Below are positions 10,072 through 26,990 of a DNA stretch of 27,443 bases, one piece after another. The position numbers were made by a program, and so were the translations under genes. This DNA comes from a virus: UHGV virus genome UHGV-1837213; one strand, 5' to 3'. Position 1 is the first letter of the stretch. Each line of letters opens with the position of its first letter. The notes beneath the pieces are model-generated. The model was not told the origin of the DNA. It made no database searches and was given only the letters and a program-made list of their open reading frames with translations.

Positions 10072-11646
10072 TCACTCGTTCTCTTGAGTAGATGAGTCCC
10101 CATTCCCTCGGGGTTGATCTTGCCCGCTTTCTTGGGCTGCACCACGATCATAAGTAAGTACTGACTTATTTTCAAGGGTATTTAGATCATTTTTTGGCGG
10201 AAAATTCAAGAGATCTTTATCAAATTCCTTTTTCATCGCCTCAGTAATGTTCGGGAAAATCTTCTCAATAAGCATTTCCATCTGGTGACGACGTACAGAG
10301 TCCGGTGCCTGAAGTAATGACAGTTTCTCGGCAACAGAAAATTCATCAGTAAGGCCACGAATATCGAAACTTTCTGGATACGCAATTAAAGAGTGGTCTT
10401 CGTCCAGATCTACCCCCATCCATTTCGCAACCAGTAGCATGATTTGGCGTTCAGCCCTTTCCAGACGCTCTGCTTTTGTGACAAGCAAGCTATTTACACG
10501 CTGGAAGTCATACATTTTTGCGGCACCAGATGAATTATCGATTCCCTGTGCGTTGTCCTGCTTCGTTCGCTCACCAGCTACACCAACTGAATGGTAGATT
10601 TCGTTAATCACCGTCTTAATCGTAGTGATGATCATCTGAGCTTGTTTCGGGTCTGGTGACAGATAAAACGGCTGGTTTCCACCTTCAGAATCGTAGGTGA
10701 AGACTCGCTTTGTGCCCATTTCAAGCACTTTAGTGTGGTTTTCATCACCAGGTAAAAGCGACTGTACCGGTATAGCCAACTGGCTAAATGTCTGATCCTG
10801 AATAATGGCATCAAGGTTTGACAGATAGTTTGCAACCGCACGATCAAGATAAGCGATATCATCGATCAACGATGGGCTGAAATACGGTGATTCACTTTCT
10901 CCAATACAATCAACAGGAAACACAGGAACTACGCCGAGATTATGCTCACCGCTATCCTCTAAAATAACTTTTGCCTGACGGCGACCTGCTCCACCAGCGC
11001 CCTTCTTCACTTCCTCACGGAACAGATACCACTCGTTTTGTGTCCACAGACGATAACGTTGGTATTCCTGACCTGTAGAAGTAAAAGGATCTGCGTCATC
11101 ACGAGCGACTTCCACAATTAACGCCCACAACATATTCCCGTCGTCGTCCCATGCCACATCCAGCATTTGCTGAGGTGAAATCCAGTAGGCGTAGGCGCGA
11201 GCATCTTTCTTTTTCTCGTCAGCTACTGACTCAACATCACCACTCATCGTGCTATCGACAACAACCCATATGCGACCGTAAATAGACGACTGCAAATCAA
11301 TGGCGGCCATAAATGAGTCAATAGAGGCATTCTGGCGAGTCGCACGTTTCCAGAAATTGCGGATCTGCTCTGGTGCCTCTTCGATATTTCTATGAATGTC
11401 TTCTTTAAAGAGATATTTGTTGATGAGGTTTACCACCTCACGAGTGTGGTTGAAGCGATAGGCACGCTCAACACGCTCCTTAAACTCCTGATCTCCCTCT
11501 TTAAAGTAACGAAAGATATTGTCTGTAAACCAACCACGCCCGCCAGCGTAAGTGCTGGCGAGGAAGTCCCAATGTTCTTTTTTCTTTTCGTATTCCGGGT
11601 GGCGTCGCGCCACCAGATCCTTAATTTGTTTGTCGTTCAATTCCAT
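10072..11646 (-). CDS. Portal protein, 524 aa
   Basis: Large ORF immediately downstream of the large terminase, with an acidic C-terminal tail; conserved position. Confidence 0.8.
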   Translation of the reverse strand: MELNDKQIKDLVARRHPEYEKKKEHWDFLASTYAGGRGWFTDNIFRYFKEGDQEFKERVERAYRFNHTREVVNLINKYLFKEDIHRNIEEAPEQIRNFWKRATRQNASIDSFMAAIDLQSSIYGRIWVVVDSTMSGDVESVADEKKKDARAYAYWISPQQMLDVAWDDDGNMLWALIVEVARDDADPFTSTGQEYQRYRLWTQNEWYLFREEVKKGAGGAGRRQAKVILEDSGEHNLGVVPVFPVDCIGESESPYFSPSLIDDIAYLDRAVANYLSNLDAIIQDQTFSQLAIPVQSLLPGDENHTKVLEMGTKRVFTYDSEGGNQPFYLSPDPKQAQMIITTIKTVINEIYHSVGVAGERTKQDNAQGIDNSSGAAKMYDFQRVNSLLVTKAERLERAERQIMLLVAKWMGVDLDEDHSLIAYPESFDIRGLTDEFSVAEKLSLLQAPDSVRRHQMEMLIEKIFPNITEAMKKEFDKDLLNFPPKNDLNTLENKSVLTYDRGAAQESGQDQPRGNGDSSTQENE

Positions 11647-11672: not shown

Positions 11673-12929
11673 CTATCGAGAACCACCAAGAATAACACGG
11701 TTTTTGACTGGATACCTACGATGTACTGGATAGCCCAATGCGTCTGCACTATGCTCAATGCCACCTGTCTTATCCATATCTCGTGTTCCAGGCTTGTAGA
11801 TGACTTTTTCCAGTGAATCAATCAAATGCTTGCACTTCGGATCGATATACAGCCGGATATCTCCAGATGCGGACATCAGCATTCGGTTAACAGCATTAAC
11901 ACGATCCGCAATTGGCGGGTGCTTTTTCGAATAATCGACACGTAAGAATCCCTTCTCTTTGAATATGTCTACGTCAGACTCCCCACGAGCATGTTGGCGA
12001 TAAGCACCTGCCGGATCTGGAAATACCGTTACCTGTGATTTCCAGCGCCAGAAGCGTCTCTCAAGCTCATCACAAACTTCTGCCGTGTTAGAGGAAAAGA
12101 GCACCAATTCATCAATTGCCCATAGCTCACCATTTGGCTGAGGTTGCAAAATTACGGAAGACATCGGGTCAATGTTGAAGTCCTGCCCTACCCATATAGG
12201 CAACCGAGGGTTGAACTGAAGCGGTTTTACATGCACGTTACGATCGAACGGGTAGTAAACGCGCCCGGACATGTTCTCAAAGCTCGCCAGGTACTCCTGA
12301 GCGAACGATTTCGGGTCCATATCGTTCTTAGCAGCTTCAATTTCCGCCGTAGGCACAAACGGAGAATCGGCAGTTACAAACTGCCAGCTCTTCCACTGTC
12401 CCTTTCTTTGCAGCTCTACGTTCTGGCCTATAGTCCACAGTTTGTGAAATTCCGAGAAGCCTTTTGGCGTACCAATGATCAGTGCACCGCCGCGTGTCGA
12501 TGAAAGAGTAGGTCGTAACACCTTGTACCAGGTGTCAGCCTTCATATCCTGAAATTCATCAAGCACTACAAAATGCAACGCTACGCCGCGCAGAGTGTCA
12601 GGCTTATCAGCACCTTTGAGGGCGATCTCCGAACCGTTCTTCAACACGATTGTCATCGTGGTGTCGTTCTTTTTCCTAACCCACTTACGAGGCAGAACTT
12701 CCTGTAGATCGTCCCACAAAATCTGGCGAGCCATCTGGTAAGTAGGAGCGACATACCAGACCCTTTGCTTTTTTTCCTTTGCCGCCGCACGAATAATAGT
12801 GGAGATCGACAACCGGGATTTTCCCCAGCGTCGACCAGCACAAACAACTTTAAATCGATGCGGAGACTGGAAGACTTTCATCTGTCCAGAATGCAGTTGC
12901 ACAAGACTGAGCGAGGACGGGATTGCCAT
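11673..12929 (-). CDS. Terminase large subunit, 418 aa
   Basis: N-terminal P-loop-like motif VVCAGRRWGKS; its start overlaps the small terminase stop (TGATG); followed by the portal gene. Confidence 0.85.
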   Translation of the reverse strand: MAIPSSLSLVQLHSGQMKVFQSPHRFKVVCAGRRWGKSRLSISTIIRAAAKEKKQRVWYVAPTYQMARQILWDDLQEVLPRKWVRKKNDTTMTIVLKNGSEIALKGADKPDTLRGVALHFVVLDEFQDMKADTWYKVLRPTLSSTRGGALIIGTPKGFSEFHKLWTIGQNVELQRKGQWKSWQFVTADSPFVPTAEIEAAKNDMDPKSFAQEYLASFENMSGRVYYPFDRNVHVKPLQFNPRLPIWVGQDFNIDPMSSVILQPQPNGELWAIDELVLFSSNTAEVCDELERRFWRWKSQVTVFPDPAGAYRQHARGESDVDIFKEKGFLRVDYSKKHPPIADRVNAVNRMLMSASGDIRLYIDPKCKHLIDSLEKVIYKPGTRDMDKTGGIEHSADALGYPVHRRYPVKNRVILGGSR

Positions 12930-13561
12930 TATTCGTCCTCCCCTTCACTTCCATCATCTGTCGCATCAAATTCGCTTAGAGCTTCTTCTTCCAACGTCTC
13001 AAGCAATTCGTCATCGATGATTTCAGGCTCGTCGTCTTCCTGACGTAATTTCGCCACCTGGGAAGGCGTAAGCTCACCAAATACCAGGTTCGGAATTTCT
13101 TCCTCGTCATTTTCCGCATGATCCATGCCCAATGCTTTGGACGAAACTTCAAAGCATTTTGCAAGGGTATTACTGGCTCTCTGTAAGCTCTTGAGAGAAT
13201 CCTCAATCGCCCCTAAAGGCTTACCCTCACGTTTGGCCGTAGTGACTTCGACCATCACCATCTGCCCCAACGCATACGCCCAGCCGTCATAACGTGTACG
13301 ACGTTCTTCTATCTTTTCCGCACGGGCTTTAGCGCGAAGCTCTGCGTCAGATTTAAGAGACTCACGAACCATCTTCCCAACAGAGTCCGCGCCTTTCTCT
13401 AATCCTCGCTTTTTGAAATGTCTGGAGAGTGTTTCACGACGAATGCCGTACTCTTCCTCCAGCTTTGAGAGTGTATATTCGCCTGACGTCCATTTGGCTT
13501 CAGCTTCGGCCCACTCCGCTGGTGTCAGGCGAGTTTTTACCTCGTCTTTTTCGACCGTCAT
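12929..13561 (-). CDS. Terminase small subunit (DNA-binding), 210 aa
   Basis: HTH-like N-terminal region and strongly acidic C-terminus; translationally coupled to the large terminase. Confidence 0.7.
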   Translation of the reverse strand: MTVEKDEVKTRLTPAEWAEAEAKWTSGEYTLSKLEEEYGIRRETLSRHFKKRGLEKGADSVGKMVRESLKSDAELRAKARAEKIEERRTRYDGWAYALGQMVMVEVTTAKREGKPLGAIEDSLKSLQRASNTLAKCFEVSSKALGMDHAENDEEEIPNLVFGELTPSQVAKLRQEDDEPEIIDDELLETLEEEALSEFDATDDGSEGEDE

Positions 13562-13631
13562 AGATCCCTCTAAAACACACAGAGCGCGTCCATGCGCTCT
13601 AAAACAACTTGTTTACTGCATCTGCTAACCA

Positions 13632-13662
13632 ACTTGTTTTCTGGGGTGTTTAATTAGGTCTG
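13632..13662 (-). promoter_or_regulatory. Copy of the conserved promoter/leader element upstream of the small terminase gene
   Basis: Minus-sense CCTAATTAAACACCCCAGAAAACAAGTTGGTT, similar to the elements upstream of the small acidic genes. Confidence 0.45.
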
Positions 13663-13673
13663 GCATGTCTTAC

Positions 13674-13736
13674 GAAGCCTGCTTCCGTATATATTTAATA
13701 AGTTACTTATTATTTATATATACAGAAGCAGGTCTT
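13674..13736. promoter_or_regulatory. Large nested inverted repeat upstream of the terminase genes
   Basis: Arms of about 18 bp (GCCTGCTTCCGTATATAT / ATATATACAGAAGCAGGT) flank a central palindrome ATAAGTTACTTAT. Confidence 0.5.
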
Positions 13737-13756
13737 TAAATAAGCTCCCAGACCGA

Positions 13757-14023
13757 TTACATCACCAGTAACTTCGCTTTGGCTCGACCTAAAGTAGTTA
13801 ACCCAAGAGTTCGGCGGTGATAGCGATTGTCACTGCGTTGGCGCGTATGCCCTTTCTCCACCAGCCCCTTTTTTATCAGAGCGCGAATTGAGAACTGGAT
13901 ACTTTGCTTGGTTGTCTTGTACGGCAAAACTTCAAGCAATTCGTCCAGGTCAAGTAGATGACCTCGCTCATAACCGAGATTGAGCGTTTTGATGATGTCC
14001 TTTTGTTTATCGGTTAACGTCAT
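13757..14023 (-). CDS. Small basic protein, possible winged-helix DNA-binding protein, 88 aa
   Basis: Last gene of the coupled operon. Basic C-terminus with HTH-like segment KQSIQFSIRALIKKGLVEKG. Confidence 0.5.
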   Translation of the reverse strand: MTLTDKQKDIIKTLNLGYERGHLLDLDELLEVLPYKTTKQSIQFSIRALIKKGLVEKGHTRQRSDNRYHRRTLGLTTLGRAKAKLLVM

Positions 14024-14032
14024 GGCAAATCC

Positions 14033-14923
14033 TTATGCCGGTAAAGCAATTTCTAACGGTTTATCCAAAGGTTGTTTGTCGAATGCCAGCAGTGGCAGCG
14101 TGTCAGGCAGTCGACGACCAAAGTCAGGGTTTCGATACACACCATACAACGGAGACGTAAAGCTCAGGTTGTGAATGTCCTTGAGCAGCTTCACAATGCT
14201 GGCCTCGTCCACCAGACTGTCGGCAATGTCCTGAATCGTCGTGCCACGATTCCGCCCAGCTTTTGCCAGGGAACTGTTCTTGTGGTAGTCCGCCACCAGA
14301 TCACGCAGTGCACGGCGACGACGAGACTCGCTCATAGCGAACAACTCTTTGACGATCGCCTCGTTATCACCCGGGTCGGAGCGGAAATGGCGCTGGAACA
14401 CACGCAGTGCACTTTCATAGCTCTTCGGTCGCTCAGGGCGGATGAACTTAAACCCTGCTTTCATGGCGAAGGGATTGTATTTGCTCATCGATGACTGGAT
14501 CTCAATGATTGGCCGGTCATGCATCCTGCTAACCAGGTTAATCATTCGATAAGAGACGCCTACGCCACGATACTGAGTATCCACAACTGAGCGACTGATC
14601 ACCGCAAAGTTGTTATTCACGTACCGGCCCCAGTACTGGTTAGCCACGGTGGTATTGGTGGTTGGTTTCAACTTAGGAAACATGCGATGGCGAGGTGCCA
14701 GCAGAAGTTTCGGGTAAGCCATAACCACGACGCCCACCAGACGGTCATCAAGTTCGCAGCGATAGTAAGTTGGCGCGAAAGGTTTGCCGTCTGTTTTGTA
14801 GTGAAGCGACTTAAGAGCGTGCCAGTCCTCTACAGTTCCCTTTGTGACAGTCATTCGCTCCAGAAAGTCCAGATGACGCGGAAACTCTTCAGGGCGGTAG
14901 CGTTTGATGATGATATCTGCCAT
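14033..14923 (-). CDS. GNAT-like acyltransferase-fold protein (ORF track 14033..14932; ATG at 14923)
   Basis: Motif VDTQYRGVGVSYRMIN resembles GNAT motif A (Q/R-x-x-G-x-G/A) preceded by a hydrophobic strand VVVMAY. Start coupled to the upstream stop, with AGGTGA RBS. Fold assignment is by eye only. Confidence 0.55.
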   Translation of the reverse strand: MADIIIKRYRPEEFPRHLDFLERMTVTKGTVEDWHALKSLHYKTDGKPFAPTYYRCELDDRLVGVVVMAYPKLLLAPRHRMFPKLKPTTNTTVANQYWGRYVNNNFAVISRSVVDTQYRGVGVSYRMINLVSRMHDRPIIEIQSSMSKYNPFAMKAGFKFIRPERPKSYESALRVFQRHFRSDPGDNEAIVKELFAMSESRRRRALRDLVADYHKNSSLAKAGRNRGTTIQDIADSLVDEASIVKLLKDIHNLSFTSPLYGVYRNPDFGRRLPDTLPLLAFDKQPLDKPLEIALPA

Positions 14924-14928
14924 GTCGA

Positions 14929-15183
14929 TCACCTGCGCTCGATATTGGCATTGATGAAATCCAGGCGAAGAGACTCCATCGCCCCTACCATGACATACGG
15001 GCGCCCGCCGTTATGCCAGCAATCAAGAACACTACCGTCGTTGTTGATCATCAACAGCGCCAGGCTCTGGCTTTTTCCTTCTCTGGCGTGCTGAAGTGCT
15101 TCTTCCAGCAGGCGGATGACTTCCACGTTGTTGTTATCAGTCTCTTTCGATGGCTTCAGCTCTACGATCTTCAAATCAGGCAT
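14929..15183 (-). CDS. Hypothetical small protein, 84 aa
   Basis: ORF overlapping both neighbours within the operon. Confidence 0.5.
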   Translation of the reverse strand: MPDLKIVELKPSKETDNNNVEVIRLLEEALQHAREGKSQSLALLMINNDGSVLDCWHNGGRPYVMVGAMESLRLDFINANIERR

Positions 15184-15814
15184 ATTCCACCTTCACGCGT
15201 TCTTTGTAGTGCTTGGTGATCTGCATATCCGGGCGCAGCGCGTTCTTCAGGTCTTCGTGAGTCGTCGCCACCATTACCGTCGCACCAACCTTTCGAGCGG
15301 CACGCTGGAGGTTAGACGCCACAACCTGAGCGGTTACACGGTCTAGAACAGCGCCGAACTCGTCAGCAGCCCATACTTTAGCGCCTGACTCAATCAGTTT
15401 GGCAATCTTGAGACGATATTTCTGGCCGTCTGACATTTCAGAAGGCTTGCGAACAAACAGATATGCATCGTTCAGACCAGCCATAGATAACAACCCAAGC
15501 GCATCACTGGTCGTTTTGCCCAACTGATCGATGACGTTAACCTCATTATCGAAGGTAAAATCATCGATGGAGGCTACAGACAGCCCTTCATCCTTCATCT
15601 GTCGTTGCAACTCGCGCAGCACAACGGATTTGCCGGAACCGGATTGGCCGGTGATGTACACCACATCGCCCTGCTTCACTTCCAGCTCCAGATTGTCGTA
15701 AAGCGTCCACTCTTTTTCGTCCAGGCCAAGCCCGAACGACTCAGCGATTTCCAACGTGCGCGTGGTTTTATTTACGCGTGTCTGAAACGATACGTTGATG
15801 ATGTATTTGCTCAT
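15176..15814 (-). CDS. Soluble ABC-type ATPase, 212 aa
   Basis: Walker A GQSGSGKS, signature-like SDGQKYRL, Walker B VWAADEF, H-loop TTHED. No transmembrane domain. Start overlaps the upstream stop (ATGA). Confidence 0.8.
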   Translation of the reverse strand: MSKYIINVSFQTRVNKTTRTLEIAESFGLGLDEKEWTLYDNLELEVKQGDVVYITGQSGSGKSVVLRELQRQMKDEGLSVASIDDFTFDNEVNVIDQLGKTTSDALGLLSMAGLNDAYLFVRKPSEMSDGQKYRLKIAKLIESGAKVWAADEFGAVLDRVTAQVVASNLQRAARKVGATVMVATTHEDLKNALRPDMQITKHYKERVKVEYA

Positions 15815-16479
15815 GCAGCCATCTCCCCGGAAGAGATCTTCTCCGCATATGCCACAAATGCGTCTACCCCGCTTTCTCCCGTCATTTCTTCCATATGGGC
15901 AAGCAAATCACCAACAACAATGGCAGAGCCAGCAGGGAGCGTTTTAAAGCCCAATACGTCGACAACACGTACTTCTTCCGCTGCAACTTCACGACTGATC
16001 TCGGTGTGTTCATCCTTCTGTCGTTTAGTTTCTTCGCCAAGATCGATAACTAGCGAGTCGGTGTCCATTTCTTCTGTCATACTGCCAACGAGAACATTCA
16101 ACTCACGCTCTTCGAAGCCGAAAACCTCGATATCGTCCAGAACAAGCGACTCAAGCTCTTTCTGTAGCTTAATTGCATCGTAATCAATGCTGGCAAGTCG
16201 GTTATCTTCAAGGCGCTTTGCACGTACCTCGTCATCACTCAGATCATCACGAACAATAACCGGTACGCGCTCAAGTCCAGCAAAAATTGCAGCCTCACGG
16301 CGGCCGTGGCCAGTAATAATTACGTCGTTCTTATCGACCGTAATTGGCTGGTCAAATCCGCGCTTTTTAATGGCTGCGGCCAGATCTCTGATCTGCTGTT
16401 CATCATGCTTTTTGGCATTCATCTCATAGGGAATAAGATCTGCCGGGTCGCGATATACGATTTCAAACTTTTTGGTCAT
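15811..16479 (-). CDS. ParB-like nuclease domain protein, paralog 2 (ORF track 15811..16512; ATG at 16479)
   Basis: ParB/sulfiredoxin-type motif ITGHGRREAA; acidic C-terminal half. The start overlaps the upstream stop (TAATG) and is preceded by an AAGGAG RBS. Confidence 0.75.
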   Translation of the reverse strand: MTKKFEIVYRDPADLIPYEMNAKKHDEQQIRDLAAAIKKRGFDQPITVDKNDVIITGHGRREAAIFAGLERVPVIVRDDLSDDEVRAKRLEDNRLASIDYDAIKLQKELESLVLDDIEVFGFEERELNVLVGSMTEEMDTDSLVIDLGEETKRQKDEHTEISREVAAEEVRVVDVLGFKTLPAGSAIVVGDLLAHMEEMTGESGVDAFVAYAEKISSGEMAA

Positions 16480-17159
16480 TACATACGCTCCTTGTAGTAG
16501 TCGACCAGCCACACCAGAGCCTCACCAGCGTTCTCCATTTCATTACCGGTGTTAATAGCCTGCTCTTTGATGATGTTTTTTATGGTTTCTGCAACACGAT
16601 CTGACGCATCGAAAGTTACTTTGAAGCGCATGGTCTGATGTTCCGCACCCACACGTTCGGTTTTCTCTCGTTTGTCGGTATCGACAGGCTCATCACTACC
16701 ACGAGACAACGCCTCCAGTGCTTCAAGGTCGATTGCCGCCTCTTTTGCTAAAACCATCGAGATTTCGTCGTCATACGGAGCGATTTCAGACAGTTGATAG
16801 TCAAGTTCTGACTGAATTTCTTCAATGAAGCGTTGCAATGCGATTTGGTCGTCTTCACCGTATCGCTCGTTGTCCACCAGTGACATCTGTTTAGCTACGA
16901 CATCGCTAATTTTGCCCACAGAAAGCACCGGAACCGTTGAAATTCCTTGCTCAATAGCAGCACGCCAGCGATGTTCACCGCCGAGGATTTCAAAAAATCC
17001 ATCTTCAAGTTCACGAGCCAAAATTGGCTTAAAAAAGCCCAATTTTTCGATAGAACCTTTCAGTTTTTCAAAATTCTGCGCACCAACCGAATTGGTGTTC
17101 CAGGTATTCGGGCGAAGGTTGGCAACATCAACCTGCAAAATCGTGATTTTTACATCCAT
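16479..17159 (-). CDS. ParB-like nuclease domain protein, paralog 1 (ORF track 16479..17177)
   Basis: Motifs LRPNTWNTN and ILGGEHRWRAA are typical of ParB N-terminal domains. First gene of the operon, divergent from the helicase gene. Confidence 0.75.
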   Translation of the reverse strand: MDVKITILQVDVANLRPNTWNTNSVGAQNFEKLKGSIEKLGFFKPILARELEDGFFEILGGEHRWRAAIEQGISTVPVLSVGKISDVVAKQMSLVDNERYGEDDQIALQRFIEEIQSELDYQLSEIAPYDDEISMVLAKEAAIDLEALEALSRGSDEPVDTDKREKTERVGAEHQTMRFKVTFDASDRVAETIKNIIKEQAINTGNEMENAGEALVWLVDYYKERM

Positions 17160-17177
17160 TTTATTGCTACAATCCAC

Positions 17178-22972: not shown

Positions 22973-23005
22973 AACAAATTGTTTTCTTGTTGGTGTTAAT
23001 TATCG
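22973..23005 (-). promoter_or_regulatory. Conserved promoter/leader element, copy A
   Basis: Minus-sense CGATAATTAACACCAACAAGAAAACAATTTGTT with a -10-like GATAAT, and TTGACG about 15-16 nt upstream. Confidence 0.55.
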
Positions 23006-23457: not shown

Positions 23458-23489
23458 AACATGTTGTTTTCTTGTTGGTGTAATTATCG
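23458..23489 (-). promoter_or_regulatory. Conserved promoter/leader element, copy B
   Basis: Minus-sense CGATAATTACACCAACAAGAAAACAACATGTT. Confidence 0.55.
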
Positions 23490-24204: not shown

Positions 24205-24225
24205 GAAAACAAATTGTTATCTGGC
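24205..24225. promoter_or_regulatory. Degenerate or inverted copy of the conserved element core (copy C)
   Basis: AGAAAACAAATTGTTATCTGG, containing the palindrome AACAA-A-TTGTT. Confidence 0.35.
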
Positions 24226-25110: not shown

Positions 25111-25144
25111 AACAACTTGTTTTCTCAATGGCGTAAATAATACC
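25111..25144 (-). promoter_or_regulatory. Conserved promoter/leader element, copy D
   Basis: Minus-sense TGGTATTATTTACGCCATTGAGAAAACAAGTTGTT; extended -10-like TGGTATTAT with TTGTAG upstream. Confidence 0.5.
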
Positions 25145-25594: not shown

Positions 25595-25626
25595 AACAAC
25601 ATGTTTTCTTGATGGTGTTATTATCG
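25595..25626 (-). promoter_or_regulatory. Conserved promoter/leader element, copy E
   Basis: Minus-sense CGATAATAACACCATCAAGAAAACATGTTGTT. Confidence 0.55.
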
Positions 25627-26161: not shown

Positions 26162-26990
26162 TCCCTCCCCACTTATACATACCTGGCTTCTTCGCTATAC
26201 ATGTTGTGTTTTATCTGTCTCAACCTCTCTATAGGCGTTAATGCTCACTCCTTCCAGAATGTTCTATACGGCGACTATTTCTGTTGGTGAATTGGGCGTG
26301 TTGTTCTCTCTGTCGGTGTAAATGGTTTCGTTCGTTTTGCGGTGGTTCTTCTATGGGGTGTTCTCGTCGTTTTGGTGATTGTTCTTCTCCGTGTATGGAG
26401 TAATGGCAGGTGGGCGATTGCTTTCGTTATTGTGTTTGAGTTGTTTGTCTGGAGTGTGTGAAAGGCTTTTGTAGTTATTCGTGTATTGGGTAATGGCGTT
26501 TCCCGTGATTGTTATGTTTCGTGTCTTTTGGGATTGAGAGAAACCTTGCGGTTACAGGCTTCGTTGGGGTTTCAGCGGTTCAGGTGTTTCTTCGCTGTTT
26601 GGGTAATGGCGTGTCGTGGGTATCGCGCGTATGAATGTTTTCGGATTGCCTGTGAAAGTTAGGTTGGTTGTCCGGTAGCCTGGGGAGAAGAGGTGGGTCT
26701 TTTCGGTAGCCTGCCATAAAGAGGTTGGTTGTTTTGGGGAATGGCATGTGTGTTATTTAGTTGTTTTGTTATGCCTGAAAATAAGTTGTTTATATGGTTG
26801 TGTAACGCAACGGGAACGATTTTGAGCGTGTGTTTTTGTTGGTAGTGTGTTGGGTCGTCTGTGGTGAAAATTGGACGCTGTGGCGCTGTCTGCTGCGTAG
26901 AATTACGGGTATAAGCAGTGATGTGTGAAAACGTCAATTTTTTAGACCAAATCGGATGAAAGCGTTGATGTTTCGTTGATCTGTTATTCA
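26162..26990 (-). ncRNA. Candidate long untranslated transcript or structural DNA element; ORF-free with extreme strand skew (G+T rich on plus, C+A rich on minus)
   Basis: No convincing ORF on either strand. One sampled 60-nt stretch was about three quarters G+T. Bounded by a copy of the conserved element (about 26991-27011) and a terminator-like hairpin. Internal short repeats such as GGGTAATGGCG and CGGTAGCCTG. Transcription is inferred, not shown. Confidence 0.3.

Follow-up and report, generated by a model that had tools for sequence, protein, structure and literature searches.

In phages such as lambda and SPP1, the cos or pac site lies upstream of the small terminase gene, and in case of lambda, cosN with its partial two-fold symmetry is followed by cosB and then by the Nu1 gene. 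Dispersed palindromes occur on other phage-plasmids and plasmids as well, namely as the sopC-type sites of N15 and the KorB operators of RK2, and the C1 operators of P1 are likewise dispersed. SSU5-like phage-plasmids are frequently found in E. coli, Salmonella, Klebsiella, Enterobacter and, as pMT1, in Yersinia pestis. Some of them carry resistance genes, and to our knowledge there is next to no work on how they are regulated, packaged and replicated in the lytic cycle. We here describe a large inverted repeat in a stretch of 27,443 nucleotides of such an element (UHGV virus genome UHGV-1837213, hereafter the window). Across a 701-bp query around the repeat, the window is 100% identical to Escherichia phage CMS-2020a (CP053388.1), and its relatives include Cyrano (pLF82), Salmonella phage SSU5, Klebsiella phage-plasmids and pMT1.

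At first sight the locus resembles the lambda cos region, as a symmetric site is positioned directly upstream of the small terminase gene with short repeats in between, and as two GenBank records break inside it. However, there are three copies here, the centre is A+T-rich, the short repeats are common to unrelated promoters, TerL belongs to another Pfam family, and the ends are known from record boundaries alone. The palindrome is one of three orthologous copies of a family-specific element, and our literature search found no paper describing a three-copy element, these repeats, or the termini of SSU5 or Cyrano.

The inverted repeat and its surroundings

The 88-aa ORF and terS, both on the minus strand, are 195 bp apart, and the repeat is located in this gap. 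Its 17-nt arms, which are separated by 21 nt, pair at 16 of 17 positions (94% complementary; Table 1). An inner pair (13688-13703 / 13705-13720) is 88% complementary. This structure is real and strongly non-random: DNA of positions 13668-13742 folds with -15.1 kcal/mol versus -3.3 +/- 1.7 kcal/mol in 200 shuffles (z = -7.1, none of the 200 as good), the minus-strand RNA of 13560-13760 folds with -74.3 kcal/mol (z = -8.2), the arm sequence is seen twice in the window (once per arm) where 0.05 chance occurrences are expected, and no other close inverted repeat of the entire window ranks higher. An Rfam search of the repeat gave chance microRNA-hairpin matches only (18.7-21 bits, thresholds 70-211). 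An earlier sequence-only reading had described arms of about 18 bp around an AT-rich palindrome, a position between upstream genes and the terminase genes, and an adjoining conserved promoter element. All three points are borne out, the relevant genes being all on the minus strand and related copies of the promoter element occurring elsewhere in the window; the outer pair of inverted motifs had not been listed. The nested cruciform that was also claimed exists in the lineage of the window but is not a trait of the family, as the spacers of many relatives are no more self-complementary than shuffled A+T-rich sequence.

Table 1. Coordinates of the features at the repeat, and of the palindrome copies in complete elements. 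Positions refer to the window unless another record is named.
Feature	Position	Strand	Remark
portal	10072-11646	-	
terL	11673-12929	-	
terS	12929-13561	-	210 aa; PHROG 867 'DNA binding domain'; first late-operon gene; terminase small subunit in the Cyrano annotation
Canonical terminator-like hairpin	13570-13601	-	GAGCGC-loop-GCGCTC with T-run TGTGTGTTTT; between promoter-like element and terS ribosome-binding site
Operator-like palindrome, copy 1	13603-13614		AACAACTTGTTT
Operator-like palindrome, copy 2	13628-13639		ACCAACTTGTTT; within promoter-like element
Promoter-like element	13628-13656	-	TAATTAAACACCCCAGAAAACAAGTTGGT (also given as TAATTAAACACCCCAGAAAACAAGTTGG)
Outer motif GGTCTGG	13657-13663		inverted partner of CCAGACC
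Left arm	13678-13694		CCTGCTTCCGTATATAT; first 14 nt are the half-site conserved in the family
A+T-rich spacer	13695-13715		nearly palindromic itself in the CMS-2020a/window lineage
Sequence inside spacer	13698-13710		ATAAGTTACTTAT
Right arm	13716-13732		ATATATACAGAAGCAGG; one mismatch to left arm (C.A on plus strand, G.U on minus-strand RNA)
Outer motif CCAGACC	13748-13754		pairs with GGTCTGG
88-aa winged-helix protein gene	13757-14023	-	last gene before palindrome
ParB_N-domain proteins	15811-16512, 16479-17177	-	~2-3.5 kb upstream of repeat
Site A			upstream of PHROG 2500 protein / DnaB-type helicase / primase operon
Site B			upstream of terS; the window copy
Site C			just after N6-adenine methyltransferase gene
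CMS-2020a copies	28806-28860, 61526-61580, 91622-91676		55/55 identical, window copy and variant, respectively
SSU5 copies	33458, 78304, record ends		
IMG/VR loci near a contig end	L019, L026, L045, L049, L057, L096		

Following the minus strand from the palindrome towards the late genes, the promoter-like element comes first, followed by two AACAAnnTTGTT palindromes, a terminator-like hairpin, and the ribosome-binding site and start of terS. The promoter/operator motif has 18 matches in the window (4.2 expected; none of 100 shuffles reaches 18). Small genes have it directly in front of their start codons (22973, 23458, 25111 and 25595); the copies at 24208 and 26780 are weaker, and a further one precedes parA in the full element (L010:30855-30875). 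The two AACAAnnTTGTT copies between palindrome and terS thus belong to a motif that is present at six or more other promoters of the window and before parA. Its palindromes are located at 13603-13614, 13628-13639, 22973-22984, 23458-23469, 24208-24219, 25111-25122, 25595-25606 and 26780-26791, and they are embedded in a conserved promoter-like arrangement, ..TAAYACC..AAGAAAACAAnnTGTTT, that directly precedes many small genes, parA and terS. All of these sites look as if they were operators for a single master regulator, in the manner of the dispersed C1 operators of P1. The hairpin at 13570-13601 is kept in Klebsiella and pMT1, and its stem shows a compensatory change in Cronobacter. A promoter followed by a short leader, a terminator and the late genes recalls lambda pR'-tR', and this layout suggests that the late operon may be under antitermination or attenuation control.

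On the other side of the palindrome, every relative examined has the 88-aa winged-helix gene immediately before site B. The winged helix is predicted (pLDDT 72.5), and a fold search with it returned generic winged-helix neighbours only, with E of 0.14 or worse; PDB sequence searches with this protein and TerS gave nothing usable. Further upstream, genes for two ParB_N proteins, an ABC-type ATPase and a 299-aa protein are found. Pfam detects in both ParB_N proteins an N-terminal ParB domain only and no helix-turn-helix. The gene string at 14033-17177 on the minus strand plus the 88-aa gene (ParB_N, ParB_N, ABC-type ATPase, 84-aa gene, 299-aa gene, 88-aa winged-helix gene) keeps its order upstream of the terminase out to Xenorhabdus and Moellerella elements, and in some distant lineages the 84-aa gene is missing or replaced. 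This string may have a role in packaging or defence.

Three orthologous copies with frozen arms

Three copies of the core palindrome are present in each of the three full elements that were scanned, namely CMS-2020a, SSU5 and Cronobacter sp. JZ38, and in the latter the genes that flank the copies are only ~73% identical. The three sites separate three parts of the SSU5 genome, namely a late block that includes parA, one block for DNA metabolism and one for regulation. Scanning IMG/VR with an arm-spacer-arm pattern gave at least 120 matches, and all matches listed belong to one of these three sites. In gene direction, an ACACC..CCAGAA promoter-like element comes after every copy, and most lineages have TCTGG...CCAGA at each of the three sites, 13-21 bp beyond the arms. 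The distance between the palindrome and the promoter-like element differs between the sites. Site A is ~1 kb from parAB.

BLAST searches with the palindrome alone also gave matches in three other plasmids (L005, L006 and L007). The two that were mapped by their flanks, L005 and L007, are remnants of known sites. One remnant is a site-A fragment beside an IS3 element in the unrelated conjugative IncF plasmid NZ_CP062888.1 (L007:4001-4062). The other is an intact site C in pRHB17-C02_4 (L005:4001-4092), a 70-kb phage-plasmid derivative whose listed annotation has no terminase or head genes and only remnants of tail fibres. Both remnants are traces of recombination between phage-plasmids and plasmids. 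Like REP/BIME, ERIC and MITE palindromes, the element is a repeated intergenic palindrome of ~100 bp at operon borders, but its listed copies are confined to three orthologous loci. Since this holds for the 120 IMG/VR matches listed and for the mapped plasmid remnants, and since no target duplications were seen, a mobile palindrome of the MITE or REP kind is rejected. At site A (L010:28861-28971 and the IMG/VR site-A loci), the sequence on the right side is unrelated between lineages from a few bases off the arm onwards, and the other side is conserved. The palindrome there thus marks the edge of a variable cargo region, which is located between parAB and the replication operon.

Conservation was analyzed in a sample that had been drawn independently of the palindrome, using as anchor an 18-mer adjoining terS (GTCATAGATCCCTCTAAA), which gave 78 loci with 41 unique site-B sequences. 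The repeat is present in all 41. Eleven of the 14 half-site positions are invariant on both arms, whereas positions 6, 8 and 9 vary on one arm and are not compensated on the opposite arm. In 12 of the 41 sequences, position 6 does not pair on either strand, the common variant at position 9 forms a G.U on the sense RNA, and in the common Klebsiella form three of the ten G+C-rich stem-base positions are non-Watson-Crick. The 14-nt flank beside the arm exists in 16 versions in the same sample. Between the half-sites, the spacer has 25-29 nt and 89% A+T across relatives and is variable in sequence. In Cronobacter, the arms are kept although the spacers are different and not palindromic. Two-fold symmetric half-sites that are conserved and that vary without compensation at three positions are what would be seen with an operator, and the mixture of frozen and drifting positions would not result from selection for base pairing alone. 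It therefore fits a site recognised by a sequence-specific protein more closely than it fits a simple hairpin. A contrast is provided by the small terminator ahead of terS, which evolves by compensatory change in Cronobacter, unlike the arms of the large repeat. Part of the conservation could also stem from gene conversion among the three copies, in combination with recombination of one element with another. The 18-mer itself has an exact match in a 291,867-bp viral contig (IMGVR_UViG_3300034117_001582), in which there is no palindrome and the sequence on the palindrome side is unrelated.

Possible functions of the palindromes

What could be the function of these palindromes? We tentatively favour the possibility, to which we give somewhat less than an even chance, that the palindrome is a protein-bound boundary or regulatory element beside the late promoter. 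The element consists of two inverted 14-nt half-sites, CCTGC[T/G/A]T[C/T][C/T]GTATA, with the A+T-rich spacer in between and TCTGG/CCAGA outside, and its three copies head three co-directional gene blocks, i.e. the late/packaging block, the replication block and a block of small genes. It would be read as double-stranded DNA by a sequence-specific protein that binds dimerically or pairwise and whose gene is probably on the phage-plasmid itself. The bound protein would mark and insulate the block boundaries, and its target at site B would be the late promoter, which begins ~20 bp downstream. The transcript of the repeat also forms a hairpin, and a T-tract makes the sister copies A and C terminator-like. 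As site B has no such tract, its boundary function would have to come from the bound protein together with the independent canonical terminator before terS. The anatomy, the number of copies, their orthology, the conservation pattern and the unequal tails were observed; that a protein binds, which one it is, and that it insulates or regulates is what we infer. Candidate binders are the 88-aa winged-helix protein, TerS, and the two ParB_N proteins.

There are counterpoints also to this protein-bound reading. The longer spacers of distant relatives, 44-100 nt, are awkward for a rigid dimer, and a divergent Klebsiella lineage has unrelated palindromes at the positions of sites A and B. The different distances between palindrome and promoter-like element argue against an activator with a fixed geometry. 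It had been suggested before that the repeat is a late-operon operator. A role in protein binding is indeed favoured for the large palindrome, but the classical operator-like sites are the two adjoining AACAAnnTTGTT copies, which recur at other promoters. A nearly invariant short cis-element in three copies at block borders offers a starting point in the search for the protein by which these blocks are controlled or processed. It can be used as a typing marker and to recognise degraded elements, it may explain break points in assemblies, and at site A it marks the border of the variable cargo.

Alternatively, the palindromes could function purely at the RNA level, as terminators, RNase III processing sites or 3' stabilisers at the ends of gene blocks, with the conservation being due to descent and gene conversion. 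The repeat forms a stable stem-loop with a G+C-rich base, as expected for a terminator, and the above-mentioned folding of the minus-strand RNA and the G.U variant at position 9 agree with a function in the transcript. All three copies follow the last gene of a block, as Rho-independent terminators do, and within 9 nt in gene direction there are on average 6.1 T at site A and 5.5 T at site C, compared with 3.8 and 3.0 on the opposite side. Moreover, the position is taken by a canonical terminator in one lineage and by unrelated hairpins in another. Sites A and C therefore look like intrinsic terminators in gene direction, but site B does not. There, 3.0 T in gene direction and 3.8 T on the opposite side mean that no T-tract exists on either side, and a terminator scan reported only a hairpin at 13580-13601 and not the large palindrome. 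The bidirectional terminator that the sequence-only reading had considered is therefore not supported at this copy. In contrast to Rho-independent terminators, and to the tR' of the lambda late leader, whose promoter-leader-terminator arrangement resembles the one before terS, the arms here are frozen in sequence: 11 of 14 positions do not change, the three that drift are not compensated, and the non-Watson-Crick positions of the Klebsiella form fall into the stem base, whereas the small terminator before terS changes by compensation. Loops of 25-100 nt, which in relatives fold no better than shuffles, would be poor terminator loops. It is thus unlikely that an RNA hairpin accounts for the element by itself.

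It is also conceivable, albeit on balance unlikely, that the three palindromes are working DNA-processing sites of a protein specific for these phage-plasmids, serving as three packaging starts or lytic origins, with the terS-proximal copy giving rise to the virion ends of SSU5. If this were true, it would be a multi-site system for the initiation of packaging or replication that is undescribed for the clinically widespread family of SSU5, pHCM2, pMT1 and pLF82.

The narrower version, in which terminase cuts in or near the A+T-rich centre of the terS-proximal copy, either as a cos site or as the pac start of a headful series, appears doubtful to us. The other two copies would then remain uncut as they lack the terS-specific neighbouring sites, or they would be extra pac starts. 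The position directly upstream of terS is the classical one for such sites, and an inverted repeat persists there in relatives whose TerS is only 50-60% identical. In addition, the linear GenBank records break inside the palindrome, that of SSU5 at 13695|13696 and that of Cyrano at 13694|13695, and this point, 62 nt past the previous stop codon, is not a conventional place to cut a record. However, a single cos site would not be expected to occur three times in a genome, and one of the other two copies is identical at 55/55 positions; the flanks of the three copies differ, and a composite site could still be unique. The joined ends of SSU5 correspond exactly to the circular plasmid form with no bases lost or duplicated, and an overhang of A+T only would be unusual. 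TerL has Terminase_6N, Terminase_3 and weak TerL_ATPase matches in Pfam and is not of the cos type of lambda, HK97 or P2. Its remote relatives, at ~25% identity, are from T5-like, Jersey-like and Kagunavirus phages, and the TerL family therewith leaves the packaging mode unsettled.

Assembly may have contributed to the record ends. Among the 120 IMG/VR matches listed, six are within 250 bp of a contig end versus roughly one expected, which is a mild enrichment in a count that is blind to contigs ending inside the palindrome. An assembly break is therefore a fair alternative explanation for the SSU5 record ends. The Cyrano record was probably re-oriented to match SSU5, as the Cyrano paper contains a comparison with SSU5 and no end mapping. 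The record ends thus are the only direct hint of a packaging site, and a weak one. Of the packaging-initiation site proposed from the sequence, the position before terS and the record ends inside the repeat stand, but the three copies, the seamless junction, and a TerL that is not of a classical cos type speak against a unique cos site.

As lytic replication origins, three of them in a 105-kb genome, the palindromes would consist of inverted boxes bound by an initiator, and the A+T-rich stretch between these boxes would melt easily. The layout agrees, since conserved inverted boxes flank a spacer of ~89% A+T and variable length, and site A is directly upstream of the operon for the PHROG 2500 protein, the DnaB helicase and primase. 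Herpes simplex oriS/oriL share the inverted conserved boxes, the A+T-rich centre and the occurrence in several copies per genome, but this is a likeness of layout alone. Two of the three copies have no adjoining replication gene, and the GC skew mainly follows the orientation of the genes and contains no origin signal, so that we regard this function as improbable.

Dispersed centromere or loading sites for a ParB-like protein, by analogy to the sopC-type sites of N15 or the KorB operators of RK2, seem more improbable still. Common to these systems are a few near-identical palindromes that are scattered over the plasmid at operon heads, and ParB-family genes on the element; here these would be the genes for the two ParB_N proteins, and site A is close to parAB. 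A degraded phage-plasmid that has lost the structural genes keeps an intact site C. Yet the half-sites are separated by 25-29 bp of A+T-rich spacer and do not form a contiguous palindrome of 13-16 bp as in case of ParB or KorB sites, the ParA is of the small type with a ~119-aa partner, and the ParB_N proteins, whose link to the palindromes is putative, have no helix-turn-helix according to Pfam.

Other candidates were rejected: an IHF site in the spacer, as its consensus was unmatched by inspection; a telomere-resolution site like telRL of N15, as the spacer of relatives is not palindromic and the plasmid records are circular; and a recombination site of the dif/cer or lox type, as the likeness to Xer half-sites is weak by eye and three symmetric copies would scramble a genome whose gene order is conserved.

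Distant relatives

In elements whose TerS is 50-60% identical, inverted arms are found at the same position with a shared TTCC core and changed neighbouring bases. A TerS scan of genome contigs gave four close loci only. The spacers of Moellerella and Xenorhabdus, at ~90-100 nt, are those that fold no better than shuffles. Shared frozen arms are characteristic of the core SSU5 group. In one lineage of Klebsiella michiganensis, a small canonical terminator replaces the right arm, and this, together with the unrelated Klebsiella palindromes, suggests that some hairpin or terminator at block borders may be the older feature across the wider family. The palindromes in question, from the divergent K. 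pneumoniae GCA_022968745.1, are strong and are located at site B (L146:1914-2000) and site A (L149:1328-1500), with the sequences AATAACGGCAT..ATGCCGTTATT and GGTTAATGCTAATGTAcgcATACATTAGCATTAACC.
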